A stretch of DNA of 64,000 nt from an uncultured Thermoplasmatales archaeon (GTDB lineage Archaea; Thermoplasmatota; E2; UBA202; DSCA01): positions 2,629-66,628 of the forward strand of contig CAZSHJ010000002.1 in NCBI GenBank assembly GCA_964606745.1. The letters are read 5' to 3'. A program made the position numbers and the translations under genes. This document shows, piece by piece, positions 5,338-28,322 of this stretch (positions within the stretch are counted from its first letter, which is position 1; each line of letters opens with the position of its first letter). The notes below the pieces were generated by a model that saw nothing but the letters and a program-made list of their open reading frames with translations, ran no database searches and was not told the origin of the DNA.

Positions 5338-8300
5338 ATGCGAGGAAAGAAAGTAGGCATACTTCTTTTGATTGTGGCAAGTTTGGTGATCGCATCTTTT
5401 GTTATTGCAGAGATGAAAAATGGTTTGGATATAAAAGAGGTGAGAGCAGAGCCAAATGGAGGGAACATATTGTATGTTGGTGGAACGGGGCTAGACAACT
5501 ATACAACCATTCAAGCAGCAATAGATGATGCAAATCCAGGAGATACTGTTTTTGTTTATAATGGAACGTATTACGAAAATGTGGTTGTAGATAAATCCAT
5601 TAATCTCATTGGTGAGAACAAAAATACTACTATTATCGATGGAAATGGAACGGGAAATGTTGTGAATATTAGTGCTGACTGGGTAAATATAAGTGGTTTT
5701 TCAATAAGAAATAGTGGCAGCAACTTAAGGATTTTCGGGATATTCGCCAGTGGTTATAACAATATTATCATTTTCTCTTGCATCATCTCAAATAATGACA
5801 TTGGTGTTGTCCTCAGTGGTTACAATAACACTGTTTTCTCTTGCATCATCTCAAATAATGACATTGGTGTTGTTGTCCTCAGTGGTTACAATAACACTGT
5901 TTTCTCTTGCGTTATCTCAAATAATGGTTTTGGTGTTTTCCTCAGTGGTTACAATAACACTGTTTTCTCTTGCATCATCTCAAATAATGGTTTTGTTGGA
6001 ATCAGGCTTGATTCTTCCAGTAATATCACCATTTCTAATAATACTTTTACAAATGATGGTATCACAATCGCTGGTTCTTTATCTCATTTCATTCATAGGA
6101 TTGAGAACAATACAGTAAATGGTAAATCCTTACTCTATTACAAAAATGAAAATAATGTTGTTTTGGATGGGGCTGGGACAGGACAACTAATACTGGTAAA
6201 TTGCAGCAATTTTGAAATAAAAAATATAAACATAAGCGATACACATATTGGAATAGAAGTTGCCTATTCCAGCAATATCACCGTTTCCAACTGCAACCTT
6301 TCAAACAATTATGAGGGCATCAGGCTTGAGTATTCCAGCAACACTACTATCTCCTCCTGCAACATCTCAAACAATTACGATGGCATACAGGTATATTGTT
6401 CAACCAACAATACCATTGCTGACTGTACCATTTCGAGCAACTTTAACGGTATCGGTATCGAGCTTAAGTATTCCAGCAACAACACCATTTCCTCTTGCAC
6501 CATCTCTTCAAACATTTATATCACTTATATCGGCATCCTGCTTTTTGAATCAAGCAACAACAACTTGATTTACCATAACAACTTCATTAACAACGTCAAT
6601 CAAGCATATGATGATGGTGATAACACCTGGGACAACGGTTATCCCTCAGGTGGCAATTACTGGTCTGATTTTGATGAGCCAAGCGAGGGAGCATGGGATA
6701 ATAACAGCGACGGGATTGCAGATTCACCATATTATATACCTAGTGGGAGCAATCAAGATAGATATCCACTTATAAATCCATGGAACATGACAATAAATCA
6801 GCGTCCAACCGTGAACATCGCATTTCCCTTTAATGGTTCAACAGTAAACGGAACTATCATAGTTAATGGAACAGCAAATGATACCGACAACACCATCCAG
6901 AAAGTAGAGATAAAAATAGATAACGGCTCATGGATGATAGCCAATGGAACAACATCATGGAACTATTCATGGGATACGACTACGGTCAGCAATGGAAATC
7001 ATACAATCTATGCTCGCAGCTATGATGGAGAAGACTATTCAACCATCGTGCAAGTAAATGTAACGGTGAATAATATTATACTGCCTCCGCCAAGCATTGT
7101 TTATGTCGATGATGATTTTAATGAATCTACTCCAGGGTGGCAATATGACCACTTTGATAAAATTCAGGATGGGATTGATGCAGTAGCTGATAGCACGGTA
7201 TATGTTTTCAATGGAATATATTATGAAAATGTAGTTGTGAACAAATCAATTAATCTGATTGGAGAGAACAGAAATACTACTATTATTGACGGCAGTGGCA
7301 TGGGGGATGTTGTTTATGTTTCTGCTGATTGGGTGAATATTAGTAATTTTACTATACAAGGTAGTGGAAATAGCTATCCTTTTGATATTGGGGCTGGAAT
7401 GAATATTTGTTCAAACAATAACACCATCTTTTGTAACATCTTCTCTAACAACGGTAATGGCTTAGTACTCAGTTACTCAAACAACAACTCTATAACTTCA
7501 AACCATATCTATAATAATTCTCGGGGTGTCTTACTCAGTTACTCAAACAATAATTCTATTACGGACAACTCTTTTTTAAATGACGGACTTTCTACTACGG
7601 ATTCATATCAAAATACCGTTATCAACAACACGGTTAACGGCAAACCCCTCGTGTATTTGGAAGATGAATCAGATATGGTTGTAGATAATGCAGGGCAGGT
7701 GATACTTGTCAACTGTGACAACATTACTGTCCAAAATTTAGAATTATCTAACACTACTGTTGGTATTGAATTGCAGGACTCCAACAACTGTTTTATATTT
7801 GGTAATCTCATTTCTAATAACAGGTTGGGTATGGTGTTTGATTCTTCTAGCAATAATGTAATTTCTGACTGCAATATTTTAAATAATTCTTTTTCTGAAG
7901 GCCTTGGAGTGGGCATCTCTCTCGATACTTCAGATTATAACACAATTTCAAATTGCAACATCTCACACAATGGGATAGGTATCGCATTGCTACATTCATA
8001 CCTCAATACAATTTATAACTCTGCTATTTCAAACAACTATGCTGGTTTTATCCTATTCGGAACGGGTGACAATACCGTATTCTTCAATAATTTCATTGGC
8101 AATAGATATATTACTTTTCTAAATCCTTCTACTGGGATTATATGGGGTTCTTATCGTTCATATACATACAATGGAACAAATTATACTAATCATCTTGGTA
8201 ATTATTATGATGACTATAGTGGCAATGACACAGATGGAGATGGAATAGGAGATATATCATATAAGATAGATGAACATAGCTATGATCATCATCCTTTAGC

Positions 8301-19121: not shown

Positions 19122-19337
19122 TCAATTGATTTCTTTCAATTTTTCTTTTGACTTGATACCAATAGTAATAATTTCAAGAACTACGATAAAAAGGACCACA
19201 ATGAAAGCTTCATTATAAAGCTCAGTATGTTTTTGGCAATTAAGTAAAAACCCTAGTCCGATGCCCTCGCCTAGCAATCTCATAAAGTATATCCAGTACT
19301 CGCGTAGGAATGCATACTTTAAATCTTCTCCAGGCAT
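19122..19337 (-). CDS. Small hydrophobic protein (hypothetical)
   Basis: 71-aa ORF with one TM segment in a <30% GC islet. Weak support. Confidence 0.3.
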   Translation of the reverse strand: MPGEDLKYAFLREYWIYFMRLLGEGIGLGFLLNCQKHTELYNEAFIVVLFIVVLEIITIGIKSKEKLKEIN

Positions 19338-22983: not shown

Positions 22984-23187
22984 ATATCGTGAATGTCTGC
23001 TGGATTTTAATATTTATCTCAGCATTTAAAAAAGCCGTAGCGTGTTGTATGATGATGTATGGGCTTATTGACGAAAATTGGCTTGTATCTACCGCTTTGC
23101 CTTTGTTTTGCGGGGGATGTATTGGGGCTTTTAGACGGCTTTTTATTCCTCTCTTTTCCTGTTCCCTTCAGCTTTTCTGCTCGATCT

Positions 23188-23703
23188 TCACTCAGATTCC
23201 GCAGGCGGCGGAGTGAAAGTTCTTGCCGCCAGCTCTTTATCAAGCATGAAAAGTCCGTTCCCTTCCTTTCCTGCAAGCTCTAGTTTTGCTATGATTTCGT
23301 TGTCATTTCCTTCTTCCTCTATCTGCTCTGTTACAAACCAGTGAAGGAATATCTGGGTTGCATGGTCATTTTCTTTTATCGCAAGATCCATCAGATCGTT
23401 TATTGATTTAGTAATAAACTGCTCGTGTTCCAGAGTTTTTTGAAACATATCCATGGTATCCTTGAATTCGGAGGGTGGTTTCTCAATGGCCTTTAGTTTC
23501 ACCTTTCCACCCTGGTCGTTGATGTAGCGGTAAATTCTCATGGCATGGTCCATCTCCTCATAATACTGCACCATGAACCAGTTGGCAAACCCGGGAAGAC
23601 CAATATTCGTGCTGTGTGCCGACATGGACATATATAGATATGCGGAATACATCTCCTTATTGATTTGCTCGTTCAGTGCATCTTCCATTTTTTTATTCAA
23701 CAT
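23188..23703 (-). CDS. ftn: Ferritin-like protein (non-haem ferritin)
   Basis: 171 aa. Four-helix-bundle di-iron ligand pattern (E...YEEMDHA...E..H). Confidence 0.85.
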   Translation of the reverse strand: MLNKKMEDALNEQINKEMYSAYLYMSMSAHSTNIGLPGFANWFMVQYYEEMDHAMRIYRYINDQGGKVKLKAIEKPPSEFKDTMDMFQKTLEHEQFITKSINDLMDLAIKENDHATQIFLHWFVTEQIEEEGNDNEIIAKLELAGKEGNGLFMLDKELAARTFTPPPAESE

Positions 23704-23712
23704 CTATTCGCC

Positions 23713-24363
23713 TCATAACTTTTTGTGGCACAGCCACCAGTCGTAGCACTCTATTTCGCCCTTTTCCTTTGCTTCTTCCCTTTCTTTTATCTGCTCGGTT
23801 GTCCCTGCTGGCGGAATTATAACCCTGTCTGCTATGAGCTCGTTGTTGGGCCACTTGTGGGGCAGTGCAACTTTATTCTCGTCGCTTATCTGCAGTGCTT
23901 TGAGCGCTCTAAGTATCTCGTCCCAGTCCCTTCCTACTTCAGCCGGATAGTAAACTATTGCCCTGATTGTGCCTTTGCTGTCTACTATGAACACTGCCCT
24001 GGCTGTGTTGCTCGCTCCGGAGGGTATCATGCCCAGTGCATCTGCCAGATTACCTCTGTCATCTGCAATTATCGGAAACTCGATTTCCACGCCAAGATTG
24101 TCCTTTATCCACTCCGCCCATTTCAGATGTGCAAATACTTGGTCAATGCTCAGTCCTATGACTTCGGCACCCAGCTCCCTGAACTTCTCGAGCCTGATTT
24201 GCATACCGTAGAACTCCGTTGTGCATACTGGCGTGAAATCGCCGGGATGGCTGAACAGAACGAACCACTTGCCTTTGAAGGCATCTGGCAATTTCATGTG
24301 TCCGTGCGTTGTGTTTACTTCCACTTCCGGGAATTTTTCTCCTATTACTACCATTTTTTTCAC
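23713..24363 (-). CDS. Peroxiredoxin (AhpC/TSA family, Prx6-like)
   Basis: 216 aa with the FTPVCTTE peroxidatic Cys motif. Confidence 0.9.
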
Positions 24364-24367
24364 CTCT

Positions 24368-24772
24368 TTATATTTTTATATCTTTGGAATTAATCCAGAG
24401 ACCATGAACATTGCAATACTCTCTTGCCTCTATTTTATCTGCTTTTATCTCAAACTCTGCTTCTGGCTTGTCGCCGGGTTTCAGGACTTTTCTGTATGCC
24501 TTGCCATCGGCAATCACCTGAATCCATTCTATGTAATGCTTTTCTTCCATCGGGTGGTTCTGATTCTGCCCTACTTTCACAACTACTCCATTCTCTGTTT
24601 TCTCAATATAGGGCACATGTTTTTCAGTTGAAGCATCTTCACTTTTTCCTTCCATTAGTTTCATTGGCTGTCCGCAGCATACAAGTTCCCCCATTCCGCT
24701 GTGCAGCACTTCCACAATATTTCCACATATTTCACATTTATATATCTCCCTTATTTTTGTCATATTTCTCAC
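24368..24772 (-). CDS. dfx: Desulfoferrodoxin (2Fe superoxide reductase)
   Basis: N-terminal desulforedoxin Cys motifs (CEICGN ... CCGQP) plus SOR domain ([23 protein letters not shown]). Confidence 0.9.
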
Positions 24773-24794
24773 CTCTTATTTTATATTTCACCTC

Positions 24795-25370
24795 TCAATA
24801 ATTTTCAACCCAGAGTTCGTAATAACTCTGAGGGTGCCTGCAGGCAGGGCATGCCTCCGGTGCTTCCTCGCCCTCATGAACATATCCACAGTTGCAGCAC
24901 TTCCATTTTACCACCTTATCTTTTTTGAACACGCTTTTATTTCTCACATTATCCAGGAGTTTGCGGTATCTACGTTCATGGTATGCTTCAACTTTGGCAA
25001 TCTCTATGAAACTCCGGGCAATCTCTGGGAAACCTTCTTTCTCTGCCACGTCGGCAAATTCTGGGTAAAGCTTGCCCCATTCCATTTTTTCGCCTTCTGC
25101 CGCAGCCAGCAGATTTCCTTCGGTACTTCCTATAACTCCTGCAGGATACGACGCCTTTATTTCCACATCTCCTCCCTCCAAATATTTGAAGAATATCTCG
25201 GCGTGCTCCTTCTCGTTGTCAGCCGTCTCCGAGAATATTGCCGATATCTGTTCATAGCCTTCTTTCTTTGCCTTGGATGCAAAGTACGTGTATCGCATCC
25301 TTGCCTGCGACTCCCCCGCAAAAGACGCGAGGAGATTTTTTTCCGTTTCAGTTCCTTTTAAATTTTTCAT
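24795..25370 (-). CDS. rbr: Rubrerythrin
   Basis: Di-iron ferritin-like domain followed by rubredoxin-like CCNCGY...CPACRHP. Confidence 0.9.
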   Translation of the reverse strand: MKNLKGTETEKNLLASFAGESQARMRYTYFASKAKKEGYEQISAIFSETADNEKEHAEIFFKYLEGGDVEIKASYPAGVIGSTEGNLLAAAEGEKMEWGKLYPEFADVAEKEGFPEIARSFIEIAKVEAYHERRYRKLLDNVRNKSVFKKDKVVKWKCCNCGYVHEGEEAPEACPACRHPQSYYELWVENY

Positions 25371-25382
25371 TTTTTCATCTCC

Positions 25383-26555
25383 TTAAATATTTTTATGCTT
25401 TTCATATATTTTATCTGCCAGTTTATCCAGCGTTTTAAAATCATCCTGCTTTGGATGGCCCTTTATTACAACAGGCTCAATAATCTCCACCTTCAGATTT
25501 TTTACCATTTCCTTGAGCTGTTCAACCATTTTTCCTCCCCAGCTATATGAGCCGATTATCGAGACAAATTTGGTTTTTGGTCTCAAAGCGTTTGCCAGAT
25601 ATGCTGCGTATATGGCAGAGGGATGCGCCCCGGACAGCACCGTGGGCGAGGCGATAACAATGGTGGCTGCATCAACAAGTGCCATAGCCAGCTCGCCTAT
25701 GTCTACAACTGTTAAATTAAATGGTTTTACTTCTATGCCTTTTTTCATGAGTGCATCTATGAAATAATTAACCATGGCGGCAGTACTCCCGTGCATGGAA
25801 ACATATGGCAGAACAACCTCGTTTTTCGCTTCATCGGAAATCCATTCCCTGTATGCATTTATTATGAATTCGGGATTGTCATAGACAGGACCGTGGCTCG
25901 GGGCAATTAATTCAATGTCCAGCTCTTCTATTCTGCCCAGATTTTTTCTTATTGCTGTACGGAACGGCATCATTATCTCTGCATAATATCTCTTTGCTGC
26001 CTCGTAGACTTTTCTTTCATCTTCAACAAAAAGTTTGCTTGTGGCAAGATGTGAACCTAGGAAATCGCATGTGAACAGAATTTTATCCTCTTTCAGATAT
26101 GTGAGCATTGTTTCCGGCCAGTGAACCCACGGGGCATGGATGAATTCAAGGGTTTTATTTCCCAGAGACAAGATATCACCGTCATTTACTTCCATAAACC
26201 TTTCTTCAGGCACATGGAGCAGATCAACGAGCATTATCTTGCATTTCGGCGTGCAGACAACCTTTGCATCGGGATATTGTTTAAGTACCTCCGGGATTGA
26301 ACCGGAATGATCCTGCTCCGCATGATGGGCAATGATGTAATCCACTTCTTCCCCCGCTTCTTCTAGGTTGTCCATCAACTCATTTGCTTTGCTCGTGTCC
26401 ACGGTGTCCATCAGTGCTGTCTTCTCACTCCCTTTTATAAGATAGGAGTTGTAACTGGTGCCGTCGGGAAGCGGAATGAGTTCGTCAAAAAGTTTCCTAT
26501 CCCAGTCTATTACTCCTGCCGAATATATGTCCGGTTTGATTTTCCTTACATTCAT
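25383..26555 (-). CDS. fprA: Flavodiiron protein (FprA-type O2/NO reductase)
   Basis: Metallo-beta-lactamase-like di-iron domain (HHAEQDHSG) fused to a flavodoxin-like domain. Confidence 0.9.
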   Translation of the reverse strand: MNVRKIKPDIYSAGVIDWDRKLFDELIPLPDGTSYNSYLIKGSEKTALMDTVDTSKANELMDNLEEAGEEVDYIIAHHAEQDHSGSIPEVLKQYPDAKVVCTPKCKIMLVDLLHVPEERFMEVNDGDILSLGNKTLEFIHAPWVHWPETMLTYLKEDKILFTCDFLGSHLATSKLFVEDERKVYEAAKRYYAEIMMPFRTAIRKNLGRIEELDIELIAPSHGPVYDNPEFIINAYREWISDEAKNEVVLPYVSMHGSTAAMVNYFIDALMKKGIEVKPFNLTVVDIGELAMALVDAATIVIASPTVLSGAHPSAIYAAYLANALRPKTKFVSIIGSYSWGGKMVEQLKEMVKNLKVEIIEPVVIKGHPKQDDFKTLDKLADKIYEKHKNI

Positions 26556-26556
26556 T

Positions 26557-27024
26557 CTATACCAACACTATATCATCAGCTTCAGATTTTAAAGAATTTT
26601 CATTCATGGATTCTTTCTCGAGGCAATCTTTACATAATCCCTTGAAGTATCCGTGCATCTCATCAATTCTATGCCCCATGTCCATAATCTTCCCGGGATA
26701 GAGGCGGTCAACGTCCATATCAATTATCACACCGCATTTCTTGCACATAAAATGGTGGTGCGCCGTTGTCTTGAAATCGTATCTTAGTTCATGTCCCGAT
26801 ATGGTCAGTACTTGTATAACATTATGTCTGTTCAGTGTTTTCAGGGTATTGTAGATAGTTGTTTTTGAAAGTGACGGATTATTCTTTTTCAAATCGGAGT
26901 ATATTTTCTCGGCACTCGGGTGTATTCTGTTTTCATCAAGATACTTCAATACATACATTCTCTGTGGCGTTACCTTCATGTTATTGCTCTTCAGGATGTC
27001 TCTATATTTCTCGTAGTTTTCCAA
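26557..27024 (-). CDS. perR: Fur-family metalloregulator (PerR-like)
   Basis: 155 aa. Winged helix plus HHHFMCKKCG ... CKDC metal-site pattern. Heads an operon of peroxide/O2 detox genes. Confidence 0.85.
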   Translation of the reverse strand: MENYEKYRDILKSNNMKVTPQRMYVLKYLDENRIHPSAEKIYSDLKKNNPSLSKTTIYNTLKTLNRHNVIQVLTISGHELRYDFKTTAHHHFMCKKCGVIIDMDVDRLYPGKIMDMGHRIDEMHGYFKGLCKDCLEKESMNENSLKSEADDIVLV

Positions 27025-27057
27025 ATTCTCACCTTATTGATTGTAGTTGATTTTATT

Positions 27058-27072
27058 TTGTAATTATTACAA
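27058..27072 (-). promoter_or_regulatory. Perfect 7-1-7 palindrome TTGTAATtATTACAA (candidate PerR/Fur box) upstream of perR
   Basis: Read directly. 34-48 nt upstream of the perR start codon. 13/15 match to the Bacillus PerR-box consensus TTATAATnATTATAA. Confidence 0.55.
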
Positions 27073-27160
27073 TTTGAGATAGAATACAAATGAGATATTT
27101 AAGCTTTTGCCCATCATAGGAAAAAATTTTAATTGTTTGGCCGTTAAGAAGTGATTCTTG

Positions 27161-27946
27161 ATGGAAAAGAAGAATTTGGGTTATGTACTGGCATTGGACG
27201 AGGGGACATCCAGTGCCAAAGCTTTTGTAATTGACCATTCGGGCTTGATTGCAGGAAAGGGACAGTGTCCATTCAATCAATATTTTCCAAAACCGGGATG
27301 GGTTGAACATAGCCCCGAAGAGATATGAGATGCACAGATAAAAGCCATCAAGCAATCCCTGCATGATGCCGCCGTCAATACAAAGCAAATTGCATCCGTT
27401 GGGATTGCCAACCAGAGGGAAACTGCAATATTATGGGACATGAAATCGAATCAATCTGTCCACAATGCAATCGTATGGCAGGACAGAAGAACATCTGAAA
27501 TAATTGATGCTTTATCAGAAGATGAACGGGCATTGATAAAGGGGAAGACCGGTCTTGTTGCCGATTCCTATTTTTCCGCATCAAAGATAAAATGGATGCT
27601 CGACATCATTCCGGGATTGAGGAGAAGGGCGGAGCAGGGGGAACAGGCTGCTTTGGGCGCCTATATTTATATAGAGAACAACGGGGCATTGCCTTTTGAA
27701 TGGAAGCCGGTGAAAAAGGGCAGAAATATTCGGCTGTTGATTCCACATTACATAAGCGGAGAGAATGACGTGAAGGTTTATGCCAGGGTGAGAAAACCGC
27801 TGCGAAACGTGACTATAAAATTTCCTGAGATTGCAAGGAAAGACAGCAGGAAGGCGGTGATGCCCGGAGAGATGATAATGACCCGATTGAGAAAACAGGA
27901 ACTCAACCGGGTTAAAGGGAAGGTTACTATGGAGGCCATAGTATGA
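27161..27946 (+). pseudogene. Decayed glycerol-locus remnant: N-terminal ~165 codons of glycerol kinase fused in-frame to the C-terminal ~80 codons of the G3P-dehydrogenase-associated FAD oxidoreductase; internal TGA
   Basis: [28 protein letters not shown]...[16 protein letters not shown] is GlpK-like. It hits TGA (27326-27328) exactly where the conserved Trp (EIW) is expected. Glycerol-kinase similarity ends at KIKWMLDIIPGLRRRAEQGEQAALG. The tail GRNIRLLIPHYI...VYARVRKPLRNVTIKF...AVMPGEMIMTRL parallels the C-terminus of the 62847..63929 protein (GKNVRYVVPQFL...FYFRVKEESEDVNIVI...VVKPPEMVKVVM). Confidence 0.7.
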
Positions 27947-27980
27947 AAATGAACAAGAAAAAAAAGAAATAACCTGTATC

Positions 27981-28322
27981 ATGTGCCCGCTCGGATGCAA
28001 AATCACGGTAACTACAAGAGGTAATGTTATTCTTGATATCAGTGGAAATGCATGTCGCACCGGTGAGGGATATGCGCGGCAGGAGATATTATCGCCTTCC
28101 AGAATCATCATGAGTGTCGTGAGGTGCAGGAGGTGCGATATGCCGACCGTTTCGGTAAAAACGGAAAAGCCAGTCCCGAAAGACCGTATGGAAGATATCA
28201 TGAGAAGTTTGAGGGATATCGAGGTTGAAGCCCCCGTGAATGCAGGCGACGTTATTGTCGAGAATGTGCTGGGCCTTGGGATTAATATTATTGCAACCAG
28301 AAGTGTAAGAAAGAAGAAGTGA
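27981..28322 (+). CDS. DUF1667-type small Cys-rich protein (paralogue of 62498..62872)
   Basis: CPLGC...NACRTGEGYARQE and C-terminal GDVIVENVLGLGINIIATRSVRKK parallel CPLGC...NRCARGKKYVIQE...GDVIAANTGGTGVAIIASRDMVKK in the intact glp cluster. Confidence 0.7.
   Translation: MCPLGCKITVTTRGNVILDISGNACRTGEGYARQEILSPSRIIMSVVRCRRCDMPTVSVKTEKPVPKDRMEDIMRSLRDIEVEAPVNAGDVIVENVLGLGINIIATRSVRKKK

Follow-up and report, generated by a model that had tools for sequence, protein, structure and literature searches.

A PerR-box-like palindrome conserved upstream of a Fur-family regulator heads a putative autoregulated oxygen- and peroxide-defense operon in Thermoplasmatota

A 64,000-nt stretch of DNA from an uncultured Thermoplasmatales archaeon (contig CAZSHJ010000002.1; hereafter the window, to which all coordinates refer) carries on its minus strand a cluster of six genes that starts with a PerR-like regulator of the Fur family and is preceded by a 15-bp palindrome, TTGTAAT-N-ATTACAA. 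We read the cluster as an autoregulated oxidative-stress operon of an anaerobic archaeon, in which a dimer of the PerR-like protein would occupy the palindrome, exclude RNA polymerase and be released by peroxide, and we give this reading a probability of about 0.72. It builds on the identities of the genes, the conservation and the geometry of the palindrome, the conservation of the metal ligands of the regulator, and the use of the same palindrome by bacteria in front of genes tied to O2 and to reactive oxygen species (ROS). The autoregulated, peroxide-responsive control that an initial annotation had proposed is supported by box conservation, PerR ligands and gene content; the binding of the repressor, the position of the transcription start and the peroxide signal are inferred. 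The palindrome, below referred to as the box, is located as follows.

27058-27072, palindrome without strand: putative main 7-1-7 operator TTGTAAT-N-ATTACAA, PerR-box-like (TTGTAATtATTACAA), the sole exact copy in the window

The initial annotation had described a perfect 7-1-7 palindrome 34-48 nt upstream of perR, and reading of the sequence confirmed it: TTGTAATTATTACAA is present at 27058-27072, at that distance from the first base of the TTG start codon (27024). To what extent the box is shared was analyzed in relatives of the regulator, which came almost exclusively from metagenome-assembled genomes of Thermoplasmatota (Thermoplasmata, 'Thermoplasmatales', Methanomassiliicoccales and Proteinoplasmatales). 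The comparison set consisted of 80 species-level loci of this phylum with regulators 47-76% identical to that of the window, and covered 938 kb, ±7 kb around perR; for each locus the 200 nt upstream of the start codon were searched for the site most similar to TTGTAATNATTACAA. The box was perfect in 33 of the 80 loci, had one mismatch in 36 and two mismatches in 6, and in most loci it was located 33-45 nt before the start codon, whereas at L039, L048 and L075, loci from metagenome-assembled genomes, the distance to perR was 18-23 nt. The initial annotation had envisaged that the palindrome might be unique and unconserved in orthologous promoters; at most one mismatch was found in 69/80. The 938 kb contained 76 sites with at most one mismatch, every one of them upstream of a perR-like gene, compared to ∼1.2 sites in block shuffles. 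Alignment of 74 promoters on the box resulted in a mean of 1.4 bits per specified position, with 2.3 bits at G3 and 2.9 bits at C13, whereas the distal flanks (-60 to -40 and beyond +45) carried ∼0.07 bits. The box is a sharp footprint within otherwise diverged intergenic DNA. As the same sequence recurs at the same position in ∼70 related species, the palindrome is most likely the binding site of the adjoining PerR-like repressor.

Palindromy alone would be weak evidence, since perfect 7-1-7 palindromes of any sequence were only about twice as frequent in the window (10) as in its shuffles (4.5), and the significance of the box therefore rests on its conservation across species. The word TTGTAATTATTACAA itself was present in none of 300 shuffles of the window. 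When the window was scanned with a weight matrix for further operators, only the sites at 19163 (11.3 bits) and 43529 (9.7 bits) were found, with 0.9 hits of at least 9 bits expected. The former, which is the only other close match to the box in the window (TAGTAATAATTTCAA, 19163-19177, two mismatches), is located inside a small predicted membrane-protein open reading frame (ORF), its neighbors are other small hydrophobic ORFs, and no stress gene is nearby. Both sites were rejected as members of the regulon, being at chance level.

Within ±7 kb of perR in the 80 relatives no internal operators above chance were found, except for an extra box at four loci. In these (L006 6732, L007 66, L032 6731 and L061 6727) a strong box of 14-20 bits was present 225-248 nt upstream of perR. 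At L061 there was no obvious ORF between this extra box and perR, and at L007 and L061 the start-proximal box was weak or absent. The extra box may mark an alternative upstream promoter or a long leader.

The promoter around the box has the following predicted elements.

27096-27110, minus strand: predicted archaeal core promoter, consisting of a B recognition element (BRE)-like GCAAAAG (27110-27104) and the TATA box CTTAAATA (27103-27096), from anchored alignment and sequence reading
27083-27089, minus strand: upstream half-site TTGTATT, 17 nt before the main box, between the TATA box and the predicted transcription start
27041-27055, minus strand: second box position (+17 to +31), degenerate (TAAAATCAACTACAA), with only the 3' arm ACTACAA (27047-27041) kept

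In the 74 promoters aligned on the box, cgAAAnnTTTAAATAcc was conserved at -38 to -22 from it. The TATA 8-mer began at -31 ± 1 from the box in 60 of 73 loci, and the gap between the end of the TATA box and the box measured 23 nt in 60 of 73 promoters, that of the window included. Archaeal TATA boxes are centered ∼26-27 nt before the transcription start, and based on this geometry transcription is predicted to start at approximately the first base of the box (∼27072). With its position 23 nt after the TATA box, the box should cover the transcription start from ∼+1 to +15, and the operator is thus predicted to lie downstream of the BRE and TATA box and to overlap the start. The upstream half-site was also conserved: positions -17 to -11 carried 0.7-1.9 bits and differed from TTGTAAT by at most one mismatch in 43 of 75 loci. 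On the other side of the main box the consensus of the relatives was TAGTAATnATTACAA at exactly +17, with three mismatches or fewer in 31 of 75 loci and in none at the other tested offsets. Likeness to the box was confined to the offsets +17 and -17 and was not present at neighboring offsets. Of this second box, only the 3' arm is left in the window and its nearest relative.

The regulator has the architecture of the Fur family, with an N-terminal winged-helix DNA-binding domain and a C-terminal dimerization domain. The Pfam FUR model (E 1e-25) spans residues 14-107 and the alignment to B. subtilis PerR (BsPerR, 2fe3) residues 8-139. The best matches in the PDB were BsPerR (2fe3, E 5.5e-21) and S. 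pyogenes PerR. Among NCBIfam models, two PerR models ranked at the top, NF052545 (TransRegPerRClab) with 107.1 bits and NF047406 with 77.8 bits, followed by Bacillus Fur with 73 bits; the Zur model PRK11639 (36.6 bits) was the ninth-ranked family. The regulatory Fe/Mn site of BsPerR is formed by H37, D85, H91, H93 and D104 (PMC11724291). Residues H35, D83, H89, H91 and D102 of the regulator align to these, and C94, C97, C131 and C134, in two CxxC motifs, align to C96, C99, C136 and C139 of the BsPerR Zn(Cys)4 site. All nine metal ligands were invariant among 34 homologs. Further, N59 in the recognition helix (TTIYNTL), which is at least 90% conserved among homologs, aligns to N61 of BsPerR (YNNL), where B. 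subtilis Fur has an Arg (YRTL in the Fur chain 9ire). Asp at the positions of D85 and D104 and Asn at that of N61 are PerR-type features, whereas Fur has Glu and Arg, respectively.

The six genes were identified with Pfam and NCBIfam models and their curated cut-offs, and together with the elements at the two ends of the cluster are listed here in the order of transcription.

27029-27033, minus strand: Shine-Dalgarno sequence GGTGA, 4 nt upstream of the TTG start, from sequence reading
26557-27024, minus strand: perR-like gene for a Fur-family regulator, 155 aa, TTG start at 27024, Pfam FUR E 1e-25
25383-26555, minus strand: class-A flavodiiron protein (O2/NO reductase), 390 aa, Pfam ODP, Lactamase_B and Flavodoxin_1
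24795-25370, minus strand: rubrerythrin (peroxidase), 191 aa, NCBIfam RuberyRbr 308 bits (cut-off 200), Pfam Rubrerythrin and a rubredoxin-like domain
24368-24772, minus strand: desulfoferrodoxin (two-domain, two-iron superoxide reductase), TIGR00320 202.5 bits (cut-off 146.9), both Pfam domains
23713-24363, minus strand: peroxiredoxin with a 1-Cys Prx C-terminal domain, PRK13189 360.5 bits (cut-off 211), Pfam AhpC-TSA and 1-cysPrx_C
23188-23703, minus strand: non-heme ferritin, 171 aa, Pfam Ferritin 153.8 bits, PRK10304 135 bits, below the 178-bit cut-off
23028-23033, minus strand: T6 tract 3' of the ferritin gene, candidate transcript end, from sequence reading, overlapping the TATA-like TTTTTTAAAT of the next gene

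According to the ORF listing and the reading of the sequence, all six ORFs are intact and on the minus strand. The order given in the initial annotation (perR, flavodiiron protein, rubrerythrin, desulfoferrodoxin, peroxiredoxin, ferritin) was borne out by the ORFs and by Pfam and NCBIfam, and its spacers of 2-30 nt are close to the computed ones, which in operon order are 1, 12, 22-31, 4-13 and 9 nt, the ranges reflecting the choice of start codon. Its description of the operon as complete is correct in that no gene is broken and generous in that most relatives hold further cluster genes. With spacers of 1-31 nt a single transcript is the natural reading, and the six genes are probably co-transcribed. 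The curated equivalogue cut-offs were passed by the rubrerythrin, the desulfoferrodoxin and the peroxiredoxin. The flavodiiron protein lacks a rubredoxin domain and scored below the cut-off of the flavorubredoxin equivalogue; its translation contains the H-x-E-x-D-H motif (HAEQDH). For the desulfoferrodoxin an ATG start at 24763 is probable from the orthologs, one of which begins with MTKVREIYKC, and the peroxiredoxin probably starts with the ATG at 24354. In the anchored alignment GGTG was conserved at +37 to +40 relative to the box, and the TTG start was common to many orthologs. Oligo-T tracts terminate archaeal RNA polymerase, and the T6 tract is for this reason a candidate transcript end. 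The next gene encodes a papain-family protease and begins 204 nt past the ferritin stop codon.

The five genes downstream of the regulator have the content of a peroxide- and oxygen-defense and iron-sequestration regulon, and this content recurred in the 80 relatives. Across the phylum, perR was followed by the set of flavodiiron protein, peroxiredoxin, ferritin, rubrerythrin and desulfoferrodoxin, in varying order and with extra genes. The most common insert, found in most of L003-L078 between perR and the flavodiiron gene, encodes a 231-aa fusion of a flavin reductase and a rubredoxin (L040 7412-8107), which is probably an electron donor. The flavodiiron proteins beside the fusion were often only ∼35% identical to that of the window. 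In the one cluster that was examined in detail, the extended cluster of L040, a PAS_10 protein, a rubrerythrin-like protein without rubredoxin domain and a NifU_N protein were also encoded. The window and L001 represent the most compact six-gene version, without the fusion and the other inserts.

The box is also used outside the archaea. A scan of metagenome contigs for exact matches returned at least 120, an arbitrary sample in which the fraction adjacent to O2/ROS genes is indicative and not a rate. Of the 120 matches, 17 were listed directly upstream of O2/ROS-related genes. Among the matches listed, seven boxes were located directly upstream of perR-like genes with products 36-55% identical to the regulator of the window, and three at rubrerythrin or reverse rubrerythrin genes, with a perR-like gene following in one of these (L095). 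One of those listed was present at a 2-Cys peroxiredoxin gene and another had a desulfoferrodoxin gene ∼400 nt downstream. Also among those listed, five near-identical contigs of Bacteroidales had the box 15 nt before DUF4492-cydA-cydB, the latter encoding cytochrome bd oxidase. These contigs (L111, L130 with the box at 7267-7281, L132, L190 and L200) resemble gut Bacteroidales, with a TolC-like gene divergent from the cluster, and suggest PerR-like control of an O2 reductase in gut Bacteroidales-like bacteria. Several of the matched promoters were bacterial (TTGACA...TATAAT), with the box at or just after the -10 element, and at the bacterial locus L171 a second box was also present at the 17-bp phase. 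An exact look-up yielded bacterial regulators from Alloprevotella, Muribaculum and Fibrobacter, for which one source uses the name 'Fur family peroxide stress response transcriptional regulator'. The recognition helix TTVYNTL was common to the bacterial and the archaeal regulators. The box may thus define the operators of a PerR-like subfamily that spans both domains and is linked to oxygen defense.

At L083, L118 and L154 the exact box was located between a gene for an Lrp/AsnC-type regulator and a divergent asparagine-synthetase-like gene, the latter assigned by a look at the sequence alone. This is probably an unrelated use of the same AT-rich palindrome.

The location of the box also fits roles other than that of an operator for the adjoining regulator. 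It sits where the transcription start or an initiator is expected, and it could belong to the core promoter or act as an initiator, or an unrelated transcription factor could bind there; its linkage to the Fur-family gene would then be incidental. The conserved TgTTAAA further upstream does not resemble the box and possibly represents a promoter-proximal element, AT-rich palindromes are common, as the ten perfect 7-1-7 palindromes of the window illustrate, and the three boxes beside Lrp/AsnC regulators among the listed metagenomic matches would fit another factor. However, Fur-family boxes have the same 7-1-7 architecture and the same core; the box accompanies perR-like genes in TATA promoters of archaea as well as in sigma70 and Bacteroidota promoters of bacteria, and it was absent from other promoters in the 938 kb. 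Its presence beside oxygen-defense genes in both domains argues against a basal promoter element and equally against a zinc regulon. We therefore consider a promoter element or a site of an unrelated factor very unlikely. The box is furthermore predicted to form the first 15 nt of the transcribed leader, and the palindrome could act at the level of RNA, as a 5'-leader hairpin that affects stability or translation. A 7-1-7 repeat cannot, however, close a one-nucleotide loop, and the leader RNA fold had only -1.8 kcal/mol (z +0.6), with 138 of 200 shuffles folding at least as well. Changes in the arms of the box among 77 sites were one-sided in 52 cases and compensatory in none; as they are one-sided and never compensatory, it is the half-site sequence itself that is conserved, as expected of protein-DNA contact. 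An RNA hairpin was rejected on the weak fold and the absent compensatory changes, and is considered exceedingly improbable.

If the box is the operator of the regulator, the regulator could still be a metal sensor of the Fur, Mur or Zur type, and the operon tuned to the supply of iron, manganese or zinc. In favor of this main alternative, the box fits the core of the Zur box as well as it fits the PerR box (13/15 each), four iron proteins and a ferritin are encoded in the operon, and the regulator obtained 73 bits with the Bacillus Fur model, with every curated PerR cut-off out of reach. PerR proteins need Fe or Mn as corepressor, so that metal dependence is expected either way. The PerR models (107 and 78 bits) nevertheless outscored both Fur (73 bits) and Zur (37 bits), the top PDB matches were PerR proteins, and the regulator has Asp and not Glu at the positions of D85 and D104 and Asn and not Arg at that of N61. 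No znuABC-like or other metal-uptake genes adjoined perR in the window or in the loci of the 80 relatives, and in bacteria the same box precedes genes for rubrerythrin, peroxiredoxin and cytochrome bd. A metal sensor is on these grounds unlikely.

Several observations weigh against the reading as a PerR-controlled oxidative-stress operon. The initial annotation had matched the box to the bacterial PerR box in 13 of 15 positions, and the count holds for the B. subtilis PerR box (TTATAATNATTATAA), from which it differs by G/C instead of A/T at positions 3 and 13. The match does not discriminate by itself, because the core of the Gram-positive Zur box (TCGTAATNATTACGA, PMC545781), which differs at positions 2 and 14, also scores 13/15. 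The regulator itself reached no curated PerR equivalogue cut-off (NF052545, 107.1 vs. 180 bits; NF047406, 77.8 vs. 200 bits) and judged by its sequence it is PerR-like, but none of the curated PerR equivalogues includes it. The homologs have a nearly invariant fifth cysteine, C107, which belongs to a C-P motif and is not a zinc ligand in BsPerR; in the window protein it is replaced by Arg (R107-L108 codons at 26704-26709; DRLYPG in the window vs. DCPYLG in the relatives). The second box is degenerate in the window. The 7-1-7 box is located in the promoter of perR itself, and a second target promoter was detected neither in the window nor, in the 80 relatives, within ±7 kb of perR; no other promoter within this reach carries the box, and the evidence for a regulon inside the lineage therefore amounts to one promoter per genome. 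Finally, SisPerR of Saccharolobus islandicus, an H2O2-responsive archaeal repressor of the Fur family with perR as a direct target, controls dps, nirD and mntH, i.e., metal homeostasis, and not ROS-scavenging enzymes (PMC11724291).

Taken as an autoregulated oxidative-stress operon, the cluster would work as follows. One transcript from ∼27072 to the T-tract near 23030 would encode the PerR-type repressor and five enzymes, of which the flavodiiron protein would reduce O2, rubrerythrin and peroxiredoxin H2O2 and desulfoferrodoxin superoxide, while ferritin would sequester iron. Without oxidant, the metal-loaded PerR-like dimer is proposed to bind the 7-1-7 box TTGTAATnATTACAA over the transcription start, and further dimers would probably be recruited by the TTGTATT half-site and the second box, which flank it in 17-bp register. 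A repressor over the start would leave the TATA-binding protein (TBP) and transcription factor B (TFB) free and block the recruitment of RNA polymerase or the formation of the open complex. Blocking of RNA polymerase with TBP and TFB left free is the usual mode of repression in archaea. At the regulatory Fe site, peroxide would then oxidize one of the His ligands H35 and H89, corresponding to H37 and H91 of BsPerR, and this oxidation would release the repressor and derepress the whole operon, perR included.

Divergent from perR lies a disrupted gene for a glycerol kinase (27158-28322, plus strand). Two ORFs match FGGY_N positions 1-48 and 87-151; the continuation of the second one is unrelated in sequence and stops ahead of a DUF1667 gene (27981-28322). 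It appears that most of a glpK-dehydrogenase cluster was lost here by deletion. The identical arrangement was found on two independent Logan assemblies (L081 and L082), and is therefore not an assembly artifact.

Among known systems, the closest structural match is B. subtilis PerR, which shares the Fur family, the five regulatory ligands and the Cys4 site, a 7-1-7 inverted repeat (13/15) as operator, predicted here, an iron-storage protein in the regulon (mrgA there, ferritin here) and autoregulation, proposed here and known from B. subtilis, where PerR represses its own gene (PMC11724291). It differs in the promoter, which is a sigma-A promoter there and an archaeal BRE/TATA promoter here, and in the targets, which are catalase, AhpCF and heme synthesis there and anaerobe-type enzymes in a single compact regulator-headed operon here. 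The closest functional analogs are found in Clostridia. The PerR regulon of C. acetobutylicum has been defined experimentally (rbr3AB, dfx, rd, nror and fprA1/2), and in this strict anaerobe PerR represses rubrerythrins, desulfoferrodoxin, flavodiiron proteins and electron donors (PMC5050335); the rbr-perR-rbo operon of C. difficile matches in logic and gene content. In contrast to the operon described here, the clostridial targets are spread over several promoters, and the basal transcription machinery is different.

The PerR-like regulators of Bacteroidota and Fibrobacter have the exact 15-bp box directly upstream of perR-like genes linked to rubrerythrin, and share the recognition helix (S/T)LSxTTVYNTL with the archaeal proteins. 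They differ from the window protein in sequence (36-45% identity), in their bacterial promoters and, several of them, in an altered ligand pattern, e.g., HAH for HHH. The perR-rbr-rdl operon of Desulfovibrio is likewise headed by perR, encodes a rubrerythrin and has a palindrome ∼36 nt upstream of the start (PMC545781, Table 7), and its operator AtCAGTAATtGTTACTGgT shares the GTAAT-N-(A/G)TTAC core with the window box (PMC545781). There, the outer positions read CAG...CTG instead of TTG...CAA, the promoter is bacterial and the operator is a computational prediction only.

In the literature searched, SisPerR was the only experimentally characterized archaeal PerR, and neither the motif string of the box nor a link between PerR and Thermoplasmatota was found. 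SisPerR has a partial canonical ligand set and novel residues, whereas the window protein has the full bacterial set and heads ROS-scavenging genes. PerR homologs are reported to be scarce in Euryarchaea outside Methanobacteria and Methanomicrobia, and horizontal transfer has been suggested for the non-crenarchaeal ones (PMC11724291). We find it slightly more probable than an even chance that anaerobic Thermoplasmatota including Methanomassiliicoccales share a bacterial-type PerR-operator module with a full Fe/His site, possibly acquired horizontally, which was refitted to a BRE/TATA promoter as a phased 17-bp multi-box array reaching from just past the TATA box to ∼+32. This would be the first canonical archaeal PerR circuit that directly controls ROS/O2-scavenging enzymes, and TTGTAATnATTACAA would be a cross-domain 'anaerobe PerR' regulon word, shared with Bacteroidota, Fibrobacter and bacteria with sigma70 promoters and extending to cytochrome bd.

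Oxygen and peroxide sensing in strictly anaerobic archaea is poorly known. The archaeal system described here is of the PerR type; its predicted operator is unusually well defined and extends across the phylum, and its promoter is laid out in the archaeal manner. Its mechanism is an expected one and not new. An O2/ROS-defense cluster is headed by a PerR-like repressor with the full set of ligands and by a sharp predicted operator in dozens of species of Thermoplasmatota, among them lineages that abound in marine sediments and the gut methanogen order Methanomassiliicoccales. The 15-bp site, the fixed promoter geometry and the ligand residues provide a concrete and testable regulatory model for uncultured anaerobes, and the box motif is usable for the prediction of oxidative-stress regulons in metagenomes of both domains. 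The operon also appears to be a clean example of a bacterial-type repressor-operator pair in an archaeal promoter.

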